A DNA stretch of 42,406 nucleotides from a virus (taxonomy: Duplodnaviria; Heunggongvirae; Uroviricota; Caudoviricetes), in IMG/VR virus record IMGVR_UViG_2663762841_000006, positions 1-42,406 of that record, one strand, 5' to 3'. This document shows, in pieces, positions 2,444-41,398 of the stretch. Within the stretch, counting starts at the first letter, position 1. Every line of letters starts with the position of its first letter. The translations under genes and the position numbers were made by a program. The notes beneath the pieces are model-generated. The model saw nothing but the letters and a program-made list of their open reading frames with translations, was not told where the DNA came from and did not search any database.

Positions 2444-3013
2444 TCAAAGTGGAGGCTCTGGTAGCGGCATCCAGTGAGTTACGTCATCCAAGATATTTCC
2501 TGATAAATACGTGAAAGCTCTATATTTTTTGTAATCAATTGGATTTACAACCCAGTTCCAATATGCGGCCACGATTTCACCTTGACTAAATGCCAGTAAC
2601 ATTTTGGTGTCTTCCGGCATTCGATCACTACAGCTTATCCAACCATCCTTAATGCAATTACCTTGACTCTGAAGCATAGCGGCACGACAGGCGTTCCATC
2701 CGACAGCTTTTCCGTGTTCAAACGCGCTGTCAAAGTCATCATCCATTTCCATCGCAGCAGGCACAGATACCGGCGCTGGCGGTGCGGTGTAAACGGCCAC
2801 GTGAGTTGAACTGTATCGATAGGCTTCACGGTCATTCGACAACCCGCAACTGCCTGTTTTCTCATATGCCGCTTTATGCACATATCCATATGGCTCCGCT
2901 TCGAGCGATGCCAGCGCGATACGCGCCAGCTCAGCCGCTTCGTCATCTTGAACGCAATACCATGCGTTTCCAGATGCTAATTGTTCCAGACGTTCTTTGG
3001 GAATAGTGCTCAT
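2444..3013 (-). CDS. phage early-region protein with DUF551-like C-terminal domain
   Basis: 189 aa; C-terminal DGWISCSDRMPE...HWMPLP motif recalled from DUF551 phage proteins; AAGGAG RBS; ATGA overlap with upstream gene. Confidence 0.5.
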   Translation of the reverse strand: MSTIPKERLEQLASGNAWYCVQDDEAAELARIALASLEAEPYGYVHKAAYEKTGSCGLSNDREAYRYSSTHVAVYTAPPAPVSVPAAMEMDDDFDSAFEHGKAVGWNACRAAMLQSQGNCIKDGWISCSDRMPEDTKMLLAFSQGEIVAAYWNWVVNPIDYKKYRAFTYLSGNILDDVTHWMPLPEPPL

Positions 3014-3447
3014 GATGCCTCTCCTTTACCTGCTTCGGTGACGTTTATTCCAGCGTTGTGCAGTGCCTCAAGAACCTGATGCTGCCTGTAAACCATTTCA
3101 GTGTGGTAAGGCTCGTCAAAATCGACGCGATGCAACATGCTATAGCATTGCGGAAGCACAACCTCCCGCAACTGCAGCTCAGCAATGCGCTTCTCTGCGG
3201 CTTCCAGCTCAACACGCAGTTTCCCTACCGTTAGCGCAATTTCCTCGTTCTCCTGATCGCGGAGTTTGATGTATTGCTGGTTCCTTTCCCGTTCATCCAG
3301 CAGTGCCAGCGCGATATCTGGCGAAAAGTGCTTCATAAAATCGTTAAGCGCATTAATTCGCTGATCGAAAGGCATTACAGGTGCTTCACCAGCAATTTTT
3401 GTTTTTTCAGCGATTTCACGAAGCTTTTGATAATCAATCTTGCTCAC
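3010..3447 (-). CDS. Ead/Ea22-like protein
   Basis: 145 aa, coiled-coil-rich; GTG start with AAGGAG RBS; family assignment from recalled similarity to lambda Ea22-type proteins. Confidence 0.5.
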
Positions 3448-3611
3448 TGCTTGACTCCTTTACGCCACATCGCATTCAGATATTTGTTGTCATTAACAGA
3501 ACCGAAACTCTTCCTTTTAAGCAATTCCTCTCTCGATGGCATTGGCTTTACGCGTTGGCGAATAATCATTTCTGCCGGAAGAATGCCGGGATTGTATGCA
3601 AGTCCTCTCAT
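3444..3611 (-). CDS. hypothetical small early protein (55 aa from the RBS-supported ATG)
   Basis: GAGGA RBS before the third in-frame ATG; track start at 3644 has no RBS. Confidence 0.35.
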
Positions 3612-3621
3612 GGTAAATTCC

Positions 3622-3918
3622 TCAGTCATTACTGATAGCGCCATAGCGTGAGCGGTAATTACGCAGGCGCGGGTCGATATATTCAGGGAAGTGGGTATAT
3701 ATGGATTTGCGGAATGGTCGGATTGATGTTTCGTTTATTCGGTCTTTTTCCTGTTTTTCTGCGAGTTGTATATCGCGTCGGTACTTCCGTTCTTCTTTTG
3801 TTTCCGGTGGCAGAGCAAGAAACGCGTCGAGATTATTCTTGATATTTTCCAGCACCTCCGATATGGAATTGCCGGAACAGCGGCGCGGGTCGTCCGCACC
3901 ATATAGAGGCGCTGGCAT
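3622..3918 (-). CDS. hypothetical early protein, 98 aa
   Basis: AGGAG RBS before ATG; tightly packed in the early-left operon. Confidence 0.45.
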
Positions 3919-3934
3919 GGTTTTCTCCTGTTGA

Positions 3935-4483
3935 TTATTTAGCTAACTTTTTCCAGATCGCTGAAACGTATTTGGCTTGGTGAATGGCATCATCAAGCGC
4001 GTTGTGGCGAGTTCCTTTGAATGGCATATCTCGCTTAGGGTCGAATCCTATTACCTTCCCAAGTTCGACGATTGTTCTTACGTCGCGGTCATTCCACCAC
4101 TGCCACGGAACTGGCTGCCCTGTCAGTGAATAACTGTTTCGGAGAATAACGCAGTCAAATGATGCTCCATTCCCCCAAACCTGAACGAATTTGTGGTTAG
4201 CGTTCTTTATGATGAATTCAGATAACCATGAAAGAGCCGTTGAAAGCTCTTGAGTGTTGCTGGTTAGCGATTTTCTGGCTTCTTCACTCTGTTCCATCCA
4301 CCATAAAATCGTTGAAGCGTCAGGACGCGCCCGATATCGCATTGATGACTCAAGCGAGATATTTACCGAGAACTCTTCTCCTGTTTCTCCGGTATTCGGG
4401 TCAAAGAATACCGCACCAATAGAAATAACTGGCGCATATGGCCCGTTGCCCATTGTTTCAAGGTCAACCATTAAGTGATTCAT
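3935..4483 (-). CDS. DnaQ-like (DEDDh) 3'-5' exonuclease
   Basis: 182 aa; N-terminal MVDLETMG (DxE) motif and C-terminal H...D motif typical of DEDD exonucleases. Confidence 0.65.
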   Translation of the reverse strand: MNHLMVDLETMGNGPYAPVISIGAVFFDPNTGETGEEFSVNISLESSMRYRARPDASTILWWMEQSEEARKSLTSNTQELSTALSWLSEFIIKNANHKFVQVWGNGASFDCVILRNSYSLTGQPVPWQWWNDRDVRTIVELGKVIGFDPKRDMPFKGTRHNALDDAIHQAKYVSAIWKKLAK

Positions 4484-6763: not shown

Positions 6764-7075
6764 TTAGGCGGCTGATGTTTCTTCTTTCAGGCTTTCGAGA
6801 TATTTACGTGGGTCGTCGTAACATTGGCATTCGCTGTACCAATCCACCCAGCGATCAGTAAGCCCCATCTCTGATAAATCTTCATCGGTAAGGCTCTCAT
6901 CCCACATCTCAAGGCCGTTAGCATTGCAGTAATCAGGCTTGATGTTGTTGTCATACTGAAAGGCGTCATAATCAGCCAGTGCGTCCATCAGGCGAACACC
7001 CTCTTCAACACTTGCCACTTCTGCAATGAACGGTTTCATAGGTACTTGCGGGATATGCCAGACACGTAATTTCAT
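6764..7075 (-). CDS. highly acidic 103-aa early protein, function unknown
   Basis: GGAGG RBS before ATG at 7075 (track start 7129 rejected); about 23 Asp/Glu versus 9 Lys/Arg. Confidence 0.5.
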   Translation of the reverse strand: MKLRVWHIPQVPMKPFIAEVASVEEGVRLMDALADYDAFQYDNNIKPDYCNANGLEMWDESLTDEDLSEMGLTDRWVDWYSECQCYDDPRKYLESLKEETSAA

Positions 7076-7176
7076 ATTTCCTCCGTCAAAAAAATTGCCC
7101 TCACACTGGAGGGCAAAGAAGATTTCCAATAATCAGAACAAGTCGGCTCCTGTTTAGTTACGAGCGACATTGCTCC

Positions 7177-13296: not shown

Positions 13297-13707
13297 ATGA
13301 AACAGACAATTTTCCTCAGGAGTAAGCAACAACAGCAAGCCGCAATCAACGCCATCCTCGCAACACCACTCGATAAAGACAAGCCAGTTACCATCCGCAT
13401 TACTGACTACAAGCGCAACCTTGACCAGAACGCAAAATTTCACGCGATGCTGGCGGATATCGCAAGTCAGGTTCAATGGTGCGGCAAATGGTTAAAACCA
13501 GAACAGTGGAAGGTTTTGTTGATTAGCGGTCATGCAGTGGCAACAAAACAGGAAGCTGATGTTTTGCGCGGCCTTGAAGGCGAATTCGTCAACATTCGCG
13601 AAAGCAGCGCGCAGATGAGTGTGAAGCGTATGGCAAGTCTGATCGAGTACACAACAGCCTGGGCTATTGGTCAGGGTGTCAGATTTACCGACAGGAGGTA
13701 CGAATGA
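13297..13707 (+). CDS. ninB: NinB (recombination protein, lambda NinB/Orf family)
   Basis: GAGGA RBS; RNLDQN and WCGKWL motifs match lambda NinB as recalled. Confidence 0.8.
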
Positions 13708-13880
13708 GACGACAGCGACGAAGTATCACCGACATAATCTGCGAAAACTGCAAATACCTTCCAACGAAGCGCTCCAGAAACAAACGCAAGCCAATCCCAA
13801 AAGAATCTGACGTAAAAACCTTCAATTATACGGCTCACCTGTGGGATATCCGGTGGCTAAGACATCGTGCGAGGAAATGA
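13704..13880 (+). CDS. ninD: NinD-like small protein, 58 aa
   Basis: Manual translation [32 protein letters not shown]...; AGGAGG RBS; ATGA overlap with ninB stop; identity to lambda NinD recalled but not verified. Confidence 0.45.
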
Positions 13881-13882
13881 CG

Positions 13883-14827
13883 ATGACTGCGTATTACAAC
13901 GAAATAGATCCGTATGCAGCGCAATGGCTGCGTAACTTAATTGACGCTGGAGAAATTGCCCCCGGTTATGTAGATGAAAGGAGTATTGAAGATGTCACAC
14001 CAGGTGATTTGCGAGGATTTACCCAGCACCACTTTTTTGCAGGAATCGGAGTTTGGAGCTATGCACTTAGAAAAGCAGGATGGCCAGACAACAAGAGTAT
14101 CTGGACAGGAAGTTGCCCATGCCAACCTTTCAGCTCGGCAGGCAAAGGAAAAGGGGTTGATGACGAGCGGCACTTATGGCCGGCATTCTTCTGGCTTATT
14201 GAAAAATGCAATCCTGGCATCGTTATTGGCGAACAGGTTGCAAGCGCAGACGGCCTCGCTTGGCTCGACCTTGTACAAACTGACTTGGAAGGTGCGAACT
14301 ACACCTCTGCAGGTACCGATATTTGCGCTGCGGGCTTCGGTTCTCCGCACATCAGGCAGCGATTGTATTGGGTGGCCTACTCCAACGACAAATATCAACT
14401 TTCAGCCAGAGACACGCAGGGGAATTCAGAACCTATCTGGATGCGTGAGACTAGCGGGATGGCAAACTCCTTTAGCGAACGATGCAACAGGTTCAACGCA
14501 TTGCTACAGCGGAAAAGACAAGAGCGGAACCCCAAGAATCTGCTTGAAACTTCCCGGGACGGTGAAGCTATGTACCCATTACCGGTTAACGGCTTCTGGA
14601 GAGATGCAGACTGGCTTTACTGTAGAGATGAAAAATATCGTCCAGTTAGACCCGGCTCATTCCCGATGGTTAATGGCATTGCCAAAAGCTTGGGACGAGG
14701 CAAGTCCACACTGGGAAGAATGGCAAAGCGCAATCAAGATCAGCGAATTATTGGATATGGAAACGCAATCAATGCAGAAGTAGCAACGGCATTCGTGAAA
14801 GTTTGTATGGAGGTTGTTAATGCTTAG
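13883..14827 (+). CDS. DNA (cytosine-5)-methyltransferase, orphan (no cognate nuclease gene seen)
   Basis: Motif I FFAGIG, motif IV PCQPFSSAG, motif VI-like GEQV, motif VIII QRLYWVAY, motif X GNAI; start chosen at second ATG for RBS spacing. Confidence 0.75.
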   Translation: MTAYYNEIDPYAAQWLRNLIDAGEIAPGYVDERSIEDVTPGDLRGFTQHHFFAGIGVWSYALRKAGWPDNKSIWTGSCPCQPFSSAGKGKGVDDERHLWPAFFWLIEKCNPGIVIGEQVASADGLAWLDLVQTDLEGANYTSAGTDICAAGFGSPHIRQRLYWVAYSNDKYQLSARDTQGNSEPIWMRETSGMANSFSERCNRFNALLQRKRQERNPKNLLETSRDGEAMYPLPVNGFWRDADWLYCRDEKYRPVRPGSFPMVNGIAKSLGRGKSTLGRMAKRNQDQRIIGYGNAINAEVATAFVKVCMEVVNA

Positions 14828-14996
14828 CCCATCCCAATCCCTTCAATACCAGAAAGAAAGCGTCGAGCGAGCTTTAACGTGCGCTAACTGCGGTCAGAAG
14901 CTGCATGTGCTGGAAGTTCACGTGTGTGAGCACTGCTGCGCAGAACTGATGAGCGATCCGAATAGCTCAATGTACGAGGAAGAAGACGATGGCTAA
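14814..14996 (+). CDS. ninF: NinF
   Basis: 60 aa; CANCGQ...CEHCC zinc-binding motifs; sequence matches lambda NinF as recalled. Confidence 0.75.
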
Positions 14997-17339: not shown

Positions 17340-17414
17340 GGGTCAGTCGTATAAAGGTCATTACGGAAGGCTGTTAACCTTCTTATCGTGGTTCGAGTCC
17401 ACGCTGCCCCTCCA
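17340..17414 (+). tRNA. tRNA with GUU anticodon (Asn-type), 75 nt, one U4-C69 mismatch in acceptor stem
   Basis: Manual cloverleaf fold: acceptor gggtcag/ctgcccc, anticodon stem gaagg/ccttc, loop cuGUUaa, T-arm cgtgg-ttcgagt-ccacg, encoded CCA. Confidence 0.6.
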
Positions 17415-17419
17415 AATAT

Positions 17420-17495
17420 GCTGGTTTAGCTCCAATGGTAGAGCAGTCGCCTTGTAAGCGAATGGGTAGCGGTTCAAGTCCGTTAACCAGCACCA
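17420..17495 (+). tRNA. tRNA with UGU anticodon (Thr-type), 76 nt
   Basis: Manual fold: acceptor gctggtt/aaccagc perfect, D-stem gctc/gagc, anticodon loop cuUGUaa, T-arm agcgg-ttcaagt-ccgtt, encoded CCA. Confidence 0.65.
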
Positions 17496-36913: not shown

Positions 36914-37408
36914 TTATCTAAAACAAGCAAACTCGCCATGATATTTTTCCCTGAATGCAATAGACATTAATTCGGCCAGCTCAATATCATCGGTATACCC
37001 AAGGCAAATAGACTTACCTTTTAGTTTGAACATAACTTTATATGTGTTTTTCCCTTTAAGAAGATGAACTCCTTTTATACCTGTATTGGATGATGAAACG
37101 CTGTTGGTTTTATTCTGACCTCTGGTTACTTCTCTTAGGTTTGAAATTCTATTGTCATTTTTAACCCCGTTAATATGGTCAATTAACCCTTTAGGCCAGC
37201 ATCCTTTCATATAAAACCAAGCAAGTCGGTGGCAAAGATATGATTTCCCATTAATCCGTATTGATAAGTAGTCGGCCTGTGAGTTCGTCTTAAATCCAGC
37301 AACCTTTCCGATACTGGAGCTACCAGAAGCTATCTTCCAAGTGAAGACGCCTGTTTCTGGGTTGTAGTTGAGTGAAGAGGTTAATTCTTTATGAGTAATC
37401 ATATTCAT
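36914..37408 (-). CDS. HNH homing-endonuclease-like protein (HNH_3 type)
   Basis: 164 aa; HRLAWFY...IDHINGVKNDNRISNLREVTRGQN motif; AT-rich; antisense to the flanking late genes. Confidence 0.65.
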   Translation of the reverse strand: MNMITHKELTSSLNYNPETGVFTWKIASGSSSIGKVAGFKTNSQADYLSIRINGKSYLCHRLAWFYMKGCWPKGLIDHINGVKNDNRISNLREVTRGQNKTNSVSSSNTGIKGVHLLKGKNTYKVMFKLKGKSICLGYTDDIELAELMSIAFREKYHGEFACFR

Positions 37409-40004: not shown

Positions 40005-41198
40005 TTAATCAACCTTCCCATCAAGCCAGTCTGCCCACCACTGCATCATTTCTCTGCGTTTGTCGAGATACTGAGCATGGTTGTAAATTCCACGCACAGA
40101 ACCGCCGTTGGCATGTGCCAGTTGCACTTCAATAGCATCAGCGGGCCATTCGTGCTCGTTCATAATCGTGCTGAATTCATGCCTGAATCCGTGACCGCTT
40201 TCCAGACCCTCATAGCCGATTTGTTTGATCACAAGCAATACCGCGTTCTCGCAGATTGGCTTCTTCTTATCGTTGCGCCCGGCAAAAACAAACTCTGATA
40301 CTGGTTTGGTGATTGAGCTTAGCGTAGTGAGAAGTTCAACCACCTGGTCCGACATCGGGACCACATGAATTTTGCGGCCCTTCATCACACTGGCGTCGAT
40401 GGTGATAATCCTGTTTTCAAAATCGACGTTCTTCCATAGCATGGAACGAAGCTCTTTCGTTCTTAGGGCAGTGTAGCGTAAAACTTTGGTCGCAATGAGC
40501 GATACGATACTTCCTGAAAATGTTGCAAGTGCTTTGTTGAATGCCGGGATCTGGTCGGCAGGTAAAAACGGGAAGTTCTTCTTGCGGTATCCCTTCATGG
40601 CGTCAGCAAGGTCAGGTGCCGGGTTATATTTAGCCCTACCAGTGACAATAGCGTAACGGAAAACCTCGCCGCATCTTCTGCGGGCTTTGTTGGCTCGCTC
40701 CATTGCACCGCGATCTTCAAATCTGCGGATTACTTCCAGCAGTTGCATCGGCTCAATATCCTGAATTTCAAGGCCGCCGATGATAGGTAAAATGTCGTCA
40801 TCAAACATTTTTGCAAGTTCATTTGCATAGCCTACTGACCAGACTTGCTTCTTGTGCTCGTACCATTCCTTGTAAATGGCGCTAAAGGAATTGTTGTTAG
40901 ACGAAGCCTTTTTCGCTTTTACCGGATCGATGCCAACCGAGATGTCTTTCCTCGCGGTCCATGCTTTATCCCTTGCCTCCTGCAAAGTCATAAGCGGATA
41001 TTTTCCGACGGTCAGGATTTTCTCCTTACCGTCAATCTTGTAGCGAAGCTGCCATACCTTTTTCCCTGATACAGGGACATAAAGGTACAGGCCATTACCA
41101 TCGAGTAGGCGGTATGGTTTTTCTTTCGGCTTTGCTGCTTCAATCTGCTTAACGGTGAGCATGGGTAAAAATCCGGTGGGTAAAATTATTTTATCCAC
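40005..41198 (-). CDS. intS: tyrosine integrase, IntS (CPS-53/KpLE1)-like, P4-type
   Basis: 397 aa; C-terminal catalytic region (HGFRHEFST...HA...RGIYNHAQY); adjacent to argW; true start may be ATG at 41162 (MLTVKQIE). Confidence 0.85.
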   Translation of the reverse strand: MDKIILPTGFLPMLTVKQIEAAKPKEKPYRLLDGNGLYLYVPVSGKKVWQLRYKIDGKEKILTVGKYPLMTLQEARDKAWTARKDISVGIDPVKAKKASSNNNSFSAIYKEWYEHKKQVWSVGYANELAKMFDDDILPIIGGLEIQDIEPMQLLEVIRRFEDRGAMERANKARRRCGEVFRYAIVTGRAKYNPAPDLADAMKGYRKKNFPFLPADQIPAFNKALATFSGSIVSLIATKVLRYTALRTKELRSMLWKNVDFENRIITIDASVMKGRKIHVVPMSDQVVELLTTLSSITKPVSEFVFAGRNDKKKPICENAVLLVIKQIGYEGLESGHGFRHEFSTIMNEHEWPADAIEVQLAHANGGSVRGIYNHAQYLDKRREMMQWWADWLDGKVD

Positions 41199-41207
41199 TT
41201 TTTACCC
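41163..41207. repeat. three copies of the TTTTACCC arm-type repeat (two inverted at 41163..41170 and 41178..41185, one direct at 41200..41207)
   Basis: Same 8-mer as at 1385..1404; overlaps the int start region. Confidence 0.5.
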
Positions 41208-41323
41208 GTCATGGAGTGCGGCTGTCAACGATCTGACGCGAACCATGACGAACTGCGAATCTACGGAAGGCTTGATATTCATGGGATTTTGCGGACTGGT
41301 ACGGATGGGAGCGAACTGATAAA

Positions 41324-41398
41324 TGGTGTCCCCTGCAGGAATCGAACCTGCAATTAGCCCTTAGGAGGGGCTCGTTATATCCATTTAACTAAGAGGAC
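41324..41398 (-). tRNA. argW: tRNA-Arg (anticodon CCU), intact; 3' end forms the prophage att core
   Basis: 75-nt cloverleaf read from the reverse complement, ending GGGGACACCA; anticodon loop cuCCUaa. Confidence 0.9.

Follow-up and report, generated by a model that had tools for sequence, protein, structure and literature searches.

M.EcoHK31I, an Escherichia coli C5-cytosine methyltransferase with the target YGGCCR, has a beta chain that is encoded wholly in another frame of the gene for its alpha chain (Lee, Kam & Shaw 1995; PMC2836561, PMC3404938). According to these sources, alpha carries motifs I-VIII together with X and is assigned the predicted recognition domain, beta carries motif IX, the two 'require association for methyltransferase activity', and methylation in vivo was lost when the beta start codons were removed by changes silent in alpha (PMC2836561, PMC3404938). 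M.AquI (CYCGRG; Karreman & de Waard 1990) also consists of two polypeptides, and its second subunit is described as holding motifs IX and X (PMC3404938). Here we describe a locus at positions 13,883 to 14,827 of the IMG/VR virus record IMGVR_UViG_2663762841_000006 (Caudoviricetes), the whole of which, 42,406 nucleotides (nt), was analysed and is called the window below. The locus probably encodes an orphan, phage-borne C5-cytosine methyltransferase made of two chains, with one stretch of DNA read in two frames. The outer reading frame is called alpha and the nested one beta. Both frames are kept open and under purifying selection, and the start signal of beta is conserved. The two open reading frames (ORFs) and the start signal are as follows.

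13883..14827, plus strand: alpha ORF (frame A), 314 amino acids (aa) plus stop, with ATG at 13883 and stop at 14825-14827; probable catalytic chain of a C5 methyltransferase
13992..14783, plus strand: beta ORF (frame B, which is alpha +1), 263 aa plus stop, wholly inside alpha; an alternative ATG at 13974 would give 269 aa
13978..13983, plus strand: beta Shine-Dalgarno (SD) sequence AAGGAG, 8 nt upstream of ATG 13992, within alpha codons E32-R33-S34 (GAA AGG AGT)

The likeness to M.EcoHK31I, judged from its published description and not from its sequence, lies in a nested beta with its own start and in the division of motifs between alpha and beta. The alpha chains are similar in size, with about 309 aa in M.EcoHK31I against 314 aa here. 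The two also differ. M.EcoHK31I is part of a restriction-modification system, whereas the gene in the window is an orphan in the nin region of a prophage, with no linked endonuclease found. Unlike in M.EcoHK31I, beta of the window extends over 84% of alpha, motifs IV-VIII included, and alpha has motif II/III before motif I. M.AquI resembles the locus as a natural two-polypeptide C5 methyltransferase, split in the variable region after motif VIII. Its second subunit holds both IX and X, whereas motif X of the window stays in the alpha frame, so that the M.AquI type of split is not what we find. The M.AquI ORFs also overlap only briefly and are not known to be nested.

Double coding was assessed in about 170 loci, namely 90 made up of the window, nine records of phages and 80 contigs from IMG/VR, and a further 80 from bacterial genomes, to which patterns of beta peptides had led. 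In all 90 of the former the +1 frame stays open over 216-348 codons, with a mean of 293, and the longest open +2 stretch averages 55 codons. In each of the 80 bacterial loci alpha and beta overlap with beta as alpha +1, and beta was found apart from alpha in none of them. A single locus among these 80, from the Type-B symbiont of Plautia stali, has alpha broken by a stop (1368-1850, 1854-2396) and beta still open; it is probably a decaying prophage gene. When alpha codons were shuffled synonymously (500 shuffles each), the real beta was at least as long as the longest shuffle in 7 of 12 sequences and far above the shuffle mean in all 12.

Conservation of the beta protein exceeds what alpha would impose. 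The expectation, calculated from the amino-acid constraint on alpha with random synonymous codons, is a beta identity of 0.30 over alpha codons 81-165 and 0.33 over codons 236-268; the values observed are 0.59 and 0.63. From the beta start to alpha codon 80 no representative contains a stop, against 0.8 stops expected under the null over alpha codons 32-80. At the nucleotide level, third positions of alpha are far less variable over about nt 14123-14700. Across 66 representatives, codons 1-80 have an identity of 0.48-0.67 at these positions and codons 291-310 one of 0.55-0.57, whereas the conserved blocks of alpha inside codons 81-270 reach 0.67-0.90, for the most part 0.72 or more; the unalignable spacer at codons 171-230 gives 0.46-0.73. 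Where the GWxTP modules of beta lie over the alpha spacer, conservation tracks the codon periodicity of beta. A relative that is 90% identical diverges by 8.7% in the dual-coded part versus 16.5-17% in the single-coded ends of alpha, and only 7 of the 69 substitutions alter both proteins.

Alpha, too, is held open where its own sequence is not conserved. Its spacer is 56-143 codons long and would contain 2.8 stops if the synonymous codons of beta were random, with a chance of about 0.05 per sequence of having none, and it is open in all 52 sequences tested. Since the spacer stays open despite its lack of conservation, alpha is kept readable, presumably to reach motif X. As for the start of beta, GGAG followed by GATGT is present in most of the 66 representatives. 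Lineages without the usual start have a stop at that point and use instead an ATG 12 nt downstream behind GAGGA. Comparable start signals are also present in Paenibacillus phage Shelly and Escherichia phage K1H, where a stop codon immediately precedes them.

Alpha is a real ORF and belongs to the C5-cytosine methyltransferases. It matches PF00145 with 53 bits over residues 73-215 in a Pfam scan (cut-off 22), and a copy with 98% identity, set among the same genes, is named 'DNA cytosine methyltransferase' by RefSeq. An earlier note on this DNA, made from its letters only, had called the ORF a C5-cytosine methyltransferase with motifs I, IV, VI, VIII and X, and was right in this: these motifs are present, intact and invariant or nearly so across relatives. 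The note had named loss of the PCQ cysteine as grounds for doubt, and the catalytic Cys80 is intact in SCPCQPFS. Its description of the enzyme as complete and Dcm-like has to be withdrawn. Between motifs VIII and X the alpha polypeptide contains neither motif IX nor a conserved target-recognition domain, and its score against NCBIfam TIGR00675 'dcm' is 42.2 bits, below the cut-off of 100.65. The parts of alpha are listed below, with S-adenosylmethionine abbreviated to AdoMet.

13892..13996, plus strand: motif II/III-like stretch (YYNEID ... SIEDV); residues from 6 on align to TIGR00675 from position 27 of its profile
14033..14050, plus strand: motif I FFAGIG, the AdoMet loop; F51, F52, A53, G54 and G56 invariant
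14111..14134, plus strand: motif IV SCPCQPFS, aligned to the PCQ of HhaI; catalytic Cys80 at 14120-14122; invariant in the alignments
14228..14239, plus strand: motif VI GEQV, in place of ENV and aligned to the ENV of HhaI; G116, E117, Q118 and V119 invariant
14345..14362, plus strand: motif VIII PHIRQR, aligned to QKRER of HhaI; P155, R158 and R160 invariant
14378..14587, plus strand: spacer, aa 166-235; not conserved, rich in insertions and deletions, unstructured, always open
14588..14665, plus strand: conserved C-terminal box NGFWRDADWLYCRDEKYRPVRPGSFP, aa 236-261, overlapping motif IX of beta
14756..14770, plus strand: motif X YGNAI, followed by a C-terminal helix; Y292, G293, N294 and A295 invariant

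The order of these motifs is unusual, with the II/III-like stretch before motif I; HMMER places motif I of HhaI on the downstream FFAGIG. Motif IV follows within about 20 residues of motif I. The Paenibacillus phage Shelly enzyme has a nested beta together with canonical motif order, so that permutation of the motifs and nesting of the genes are separable. HMMER aligns motifs IV-VIII of alpha to residues 73-174 of M.HhaI. The AlphaFold2 (AF2) model of alpha is confident for residues 1-170 and for a helix at 298-313, and has a predicted local distance difference test (pLDDT) value of about 30 for residues 171-293. With this model Foldseek returned M.HhaI and other C5 methyltransferases as the best PDB matches (E about 1e-7, about 180-200 columns). 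In the family alignment residues 166-232 are unconserved and carry many insertions and deletions, with a spacer amino-acid identity of 0.26-0.48. Alpha as modelled is therefore a large catalytic domain and a motif X helix with the spacer joining them. Its likeness to E. coli Dcm and M.HhaI lies in the catalytic large-domain fold and in motifs IV, VI, VIII and X; in these enzymes, by contrast, motif IX and the recognition domain belong to the one chain, and motif I is N-terminal.

What alpha is without appears to be found in beta, the parts of which are listed here.

14127..14354, plus strand: N-module LSARQAKEKGLMTSGTYG ... GSTLYKLTWK ... LRASVLRTS, overlapping alpha motifs IV-VIII; proposed contact surface for alpha
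14373..14471, plus strand: recognition-type modules GWPTP (14373-14384) and GWQTP (14460-14471), collinear with the actinophage LLPTPxAxD repeats
14643..14696, plus strand: motif IX-like helix QLDPAHSRWLMALPKAWD, aligned to the in-frame motif IX EWMMGWPAGW; L225, P227, H229, W232, L233, L236, P237 and W240 invariant

Beta matched no Pfam or NCBIfam model. Its profile does align to that of an actinophage module, LLPTPxAxD(xN)...EWMMGWPAGW, over 142 columns and beta residues 132-249 (hhalign Prob 96.5%, E 8.9e-10), and the alignment stops just before motif X of that module. In Mycobacterium phage Phasih the recognition-repeat and motif IX module is part of the same frame and stands between motifs VIII and X. 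The profile match thus indicates that the C-terminal half of beta is homologous to a recognition-repeat plus motif IX module, and because of it we consider beta to carry the recognition-type repeats and motif IX that alpha is without. One-chain phage enzymes such as Phasih gp65 relate to both chains: their motifs IV-VIII are homologous to alpha, and their repeats and motif IX to beta 132-249. They differ from the locus in having all motifs in one frame, in the canonical order I-II-III-IV, and in having no full-length nested gene. We considered a weak likeness of the Phasih +1 frame to the N-module of beta as a sign of deep conservation and dropped it, the T-S-x-S part being forced by motif VIII of alpha (codons read by eye).

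In actinophages, the module that combines recognition repeats with motifs IX and X is for the most part a short protein by itself (100-274 aa) that does not match PF00145 and sometimes bears the name 'DNA methylase'. This suggests from sequence that split enzymes of the M.AquI kind are common in actinophages; in Phasih, by contrast, a single ORF of 408 aa holds all the parts. Members of the beta family have between 1 and 6 W-x-T-P modules, the window having 2. Variable recognition modules are familiar from the orphan C5 methyltransferases of Bacillus phages (M.SPRI, M.Phi3TI, M.Rho11sI), which have tandem exchangeable recognition modules in numbers that differ between phages. There the modules reside in one polypeptide, and they are not known to be related in sequence to the GWxTP modules. 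One may speculate that each of the 1-6 modules of beta specifies a target.

These parts most likely work together as follows. The transcript of the nin (delayed-early) operon would be translated from two starts, the ATG of alpha and a ribosome-binding site of beta's own inside alpha. Alpha would provide the AdoMet-binding catalytic domain with motifs II/III, I, IV, VI, VIII and X, a spacer replacing the recognition domain between VIII and X. Beta consists of a loosely constrained leader of about 45 residues, a conserved helix-plus-hairpin module, two GWxTP modules and motif IX. The two would associate into an active enzyme, as the chains of M.EcoHK31I do, with the conserved N-module of beta or its motif IX as candidate contacts for alpha. 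Beta would then read the target and supply the motif IX anchor, and alpha would methylate C5 of the cytosine. The likely role is methylation of phage DNA, and perhaps host DNA, against restriction. Protection of phage DNA or marking of host DNA is proposed because there is no nuclease partner, and anti-restriction self-methylation seems the most plausible biological role. Translation of beta, formation of a heterodimer, the need for both chains, the target sequence and the role are all points that we infer from sequence.

Other explanations of the locus have to be weighed against this. The earlier note, which had overlooked the 269-codon open +1 frame at 13974-14783 inside the gene, took the locus for an ordinary one-chain orphan methyltransferase; the +1 ORF would then be a non-functional by-product of the sequence and codon usage of alpha. 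RefSeq E. coli genomes annotate alpha and not beta, the Pfam and NCBIfam libraries are silent on beta, and even synonymous shuffles give few +1 stops (4-9 per gene), all of which such a reading would accommodate. We consider it very improbable nonetheless, given that beta is conserved twice as well as the constraint on alpha predicts and is best conserved at the GWxTP modules, where alpha is unconserved and the periodicity is that of beta codons. Beta is moreover open in about 170 loci from distant hosts, has a conserved SD-ATG and is homologous to an in-frame recognition plus motif IX module, and alpha by itself would have no motif IX or folded recognition domain. The conservation tests have largely refuted the view of beta as a by-product. 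The same order of blocks, with I-VIII in frame A, repeats and IX in frame B and X again in frame A, mimics a one-chain enzyme with two frame changes, and the actinophage relatives do carry recognition repeats, IX and X in one frame. A single fused polypeptide could accordingly be imagined, for which programmed frameshifting would take the ribosome from alpha into beta past motif VIII and return it to alpha ahead of motif X. We give this almost no credence. Beta is constrained beyond the demand of alpha over 250 nt upstream of any shift point, across motifs IV-VIII, and has its own start signal. No slippery site is conserved, an X_XXY_YYZ heptamer being present between IX and X in only 6 of 55 representatives. 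The gap between IX and X is only 23 nt in 42 of the 55, which is much shorter than the 20 residues in Phasih (Pro of WPAGW to Gly of GNG) or the 17 residues in M.HhaI. Two shifts in one gene would be unprecedented, and M.EcoHK31I functions as two separate chains.

It is also conceivable, though in our view unlikely, that beta is translated and overprinted and does its work outside the methyltransferase, for example as a regulator, a DNA-binding protein or an anti-defence factor. AF2 gives beta no confident global fold, the search among solved structures brought no match to it, nothing corresponding to the N-terminal half of beta (LSARQAKE ... TWK hairpin) is present in one-chain enzymes, and our literature searches found no characterisation of beta in phages. 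Set against these points, the C-terminal half is homologous to the recognition-repeat and motif IX module of true methyltransferases, and beta supplies exactly what alpha is without. Beta was not found apart from alpha in the 80 beta-seeded loci, and the one studied enzyme of this layout needs its beta for methylation.

Several observations weigh against the two-chain enzyme itself. For this phage and its close relatives, both the translation of beta and its binding to alpha are reached by inference. The GWxTP recognition-type repeats are in beta of the window, whereas the literature places the recognition domain of M.EcoHK31I in alpha, so labour is perhaps divided differently. In M.EcoHK31I the N-terminal 42 residues of beta matter for association, whereas the N-terminus of beta in the window is hardly conserved: the first 45 or so residues have an identity of 0.38 against 0.33 expected, barely above chance. 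The AF2 model of beta alone has a mean pLDDT of 48, with a helix at 75-95, a hairpin at 101-123 (the TWK motif), short strands and C-terminal helices. A search of PDB sequences with the beta profile returned nothing at E<=10, and a comparison of beta with M.HhaI by hhalign was not significant. Finally, the strongly conserved alpha box at aa 236-261, overlapping motif IX of beta, remains unexplained by the two-chain model. Its consensus is FWRDADWLxCRDxxxRPV, with F238, W239, R240, D241, D243, W244, C247, R248, D249 and R253 invariant, and AF2 confidence is low there.

The genomic setting of the two-chain locus is that of a lambdoid nin-region accessory gene without its own promoter or terminator. 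No terminator-like site was found at the locus, and promoter-like sites occurred at chance level. The gene order is ninB-ninE-(alpha/beta)-ninF-ninG-ninH-phosphatase-Q, all on the same strand. The ATG of ninF at 14820 overlaps the 3' end of alpha by 8 nt; in relatives such as HK630, ninF follows ninE directly and there is no insert. The flanking genes, and a nuclease-like ORF elsewhere in the window, are the following.

13704..13880, plus strand: ninE, upstream flank, a 58-aa ORF (PF05322 NinE, E 7e-44; RefSeq 'NinE family protein')
14820..14996, plus strand: ninF, downstream flank (PF05810 NinF; RefSeq coordinates of a near-identical copy)
36914-37408, minus strand: free-standing HNH_3 endonuclease ORF with the antirepressor and tailspike genes on either side, at a distance of 22 kb from the methyltransferase

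Family scans found no restriction endonuclease in the window, and the neighbours of the methyltransferase are NinB, NinE, NinF and NinG. The HNH_3 ORF is the sole nuclease-like ORF found in the window, and by sequence it looks more like a homing-type HNH than a restriction enzyme. The insertion in the nin region and the lack of a restriction partner had both been correctly seen in the earlier note, and so had ninF as one flank. The upstream ORF, which it had taken to be NinD-like, is NinE; ninE is therefore still there, with the insert between ninE and ninF, and has not been replaced as the note supposed. Of the functions that it offered, 'one half of a split system' came closest, with the correction that the split would run inside the methyltransferase and not between methyltransferase and nuclease.

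The window is a P22-like lambdoid prophage adjoining tRNA-Arg(cct) and yfdC, and the allele is found in the same context in only 10 of 5,426 complete E. coli genomes. At the right prophage end, an integrase gene (homologue of the intS annotated in a relative from ST131) lies within 40005-41398 beside tRNA-Arg(cct), followed by the host gene yfdC. The remainder of the window is a mosaic that has only patches in common with the ST131 prophage at the same site. A pair of tRNA genes, tRNA-Asn(gtt) and tRNA-Thr(tgt) at 17340-17495, just downstream of the Q antiterminator gene, also occurs in the related ST131 prophage. In the early-left region, 6764-7129 on the minus strand matches superinfection exclusion protein gp17 (PF17420, E 8e-55). 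A variant of the methyltransferase gene is present in the Stx1a prophage of E. coli STEC1588 (3180-4172 of its locus), where alpha has a different, longer C-terminus (330 aa) and overlaps ninF by 58 nt. The nin region of this prophage also has, upstream of ninE, a gene for an N-6-adenine methyltransferase and, after ninF, one for an HNH endonuclease.

Beta is widespread. A tblastn search of phage genomes with beta returned 243 records, with 40-57% identity over about 90% of its length and E values down to 5e-78; the matches listed fall at the same loci as alpha-frame matches. Hosts include Salmonella, Erwinia, Klebsiella, Edwardsiella, Aeromonas, Vibrio, Pseudomonas, Xanthomonas, Burkholderia and Rhodobacter. 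Among 1.84 billion representatives of clusters at 50% identity, the beta profile matched 15,559 at E<=1e-3 and 7,037 at E<=1e-30. The 150 best matches are stand-alone proteins of 244-487 aa, the ten longest of which have no Pfam domain. An in-frame fusion of beta to a catalytic domain was looked for among these 150 and none was seen, all of them starting at about residue 1. In PHROGs, beta matches phrog_1008 and phrog_31772, both described as 'DNA methyltransferase'.

A few phage records annotate both ORFs, namely K1H (ORF28/ORF29), K1ind2 ('Mte8-like protein'), PhiXhv-5 and Paenibacillus phage Shelly ('g55 internal gene'). The internal ORF of Shelly matches the beta profile with E 2e-14 and lies inside a methyltransferase of canonical motif order, and an Acidobacteria phage also has both frames. 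In Edwardsiella phage eiAU (1616-3037), beta is without its usual stop and reads in frame into the downstream N-6-adenine methyltransferase gene (annotated at 2495-3040), from which a beta-Dam fusion protein is possible. A link to EaeI was pursued and rejected, the match on a Klebsiella aerogenes plasmid being a phage-like region without a nuclease. Our literature searches found no paper on this phage methyltransferase family. The nested layout is rare among studied enzymes, with one known, and is common but mostly unannotated in phages. We put forward only tentatively the broader claim that phage C5 methyltransferases with two obligate chains form a very large family, for the most part without annotation and apparently undescribed beyond M.EcoHK31I, and that beta is their recognition subunit. 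If true, the family would comprise about 15,000 beta clusters; its members would come from phages and prophages of Proteobacteria, from a single Acidobacteria phage and, at a greater distance, from Paenibacillus phages.

The principle is already known from M.EcoHK31I, and the locus would be a further case of it, orphan and phage-borne; of interest besides are how large the family is, how deep the double coding goes and that annotation is lacking. If beta is required, functional tests, cloning and specificity predictions with alpha alone would fail or mislead. The alignment of the variable region of alpha to REBASE, which the earlier note had proposed, would have examined the unconserved spacer. 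About 790 nt are common to the two proteins, with purifying selection on both frames over about 600 nt. Double coding of roughly 600-700 nt would, if true, be among the longest and most widely conserved cases of same-strand overlapping genes in prokaryotic viruses, and with thousands of sequences the family offers a well-replicated natural system for the maintenance of overlapping genes. The varying number of GWxTP modules (1-6) could, likewise if the two-chain enzyme is real, shift specificity through beta and leave the catalytic chain untouched. By allowing escape from restriction, orphan methyltransferases influence the host range of phages, and a separately encoded, modular recognition subunit would ease variation of the target.

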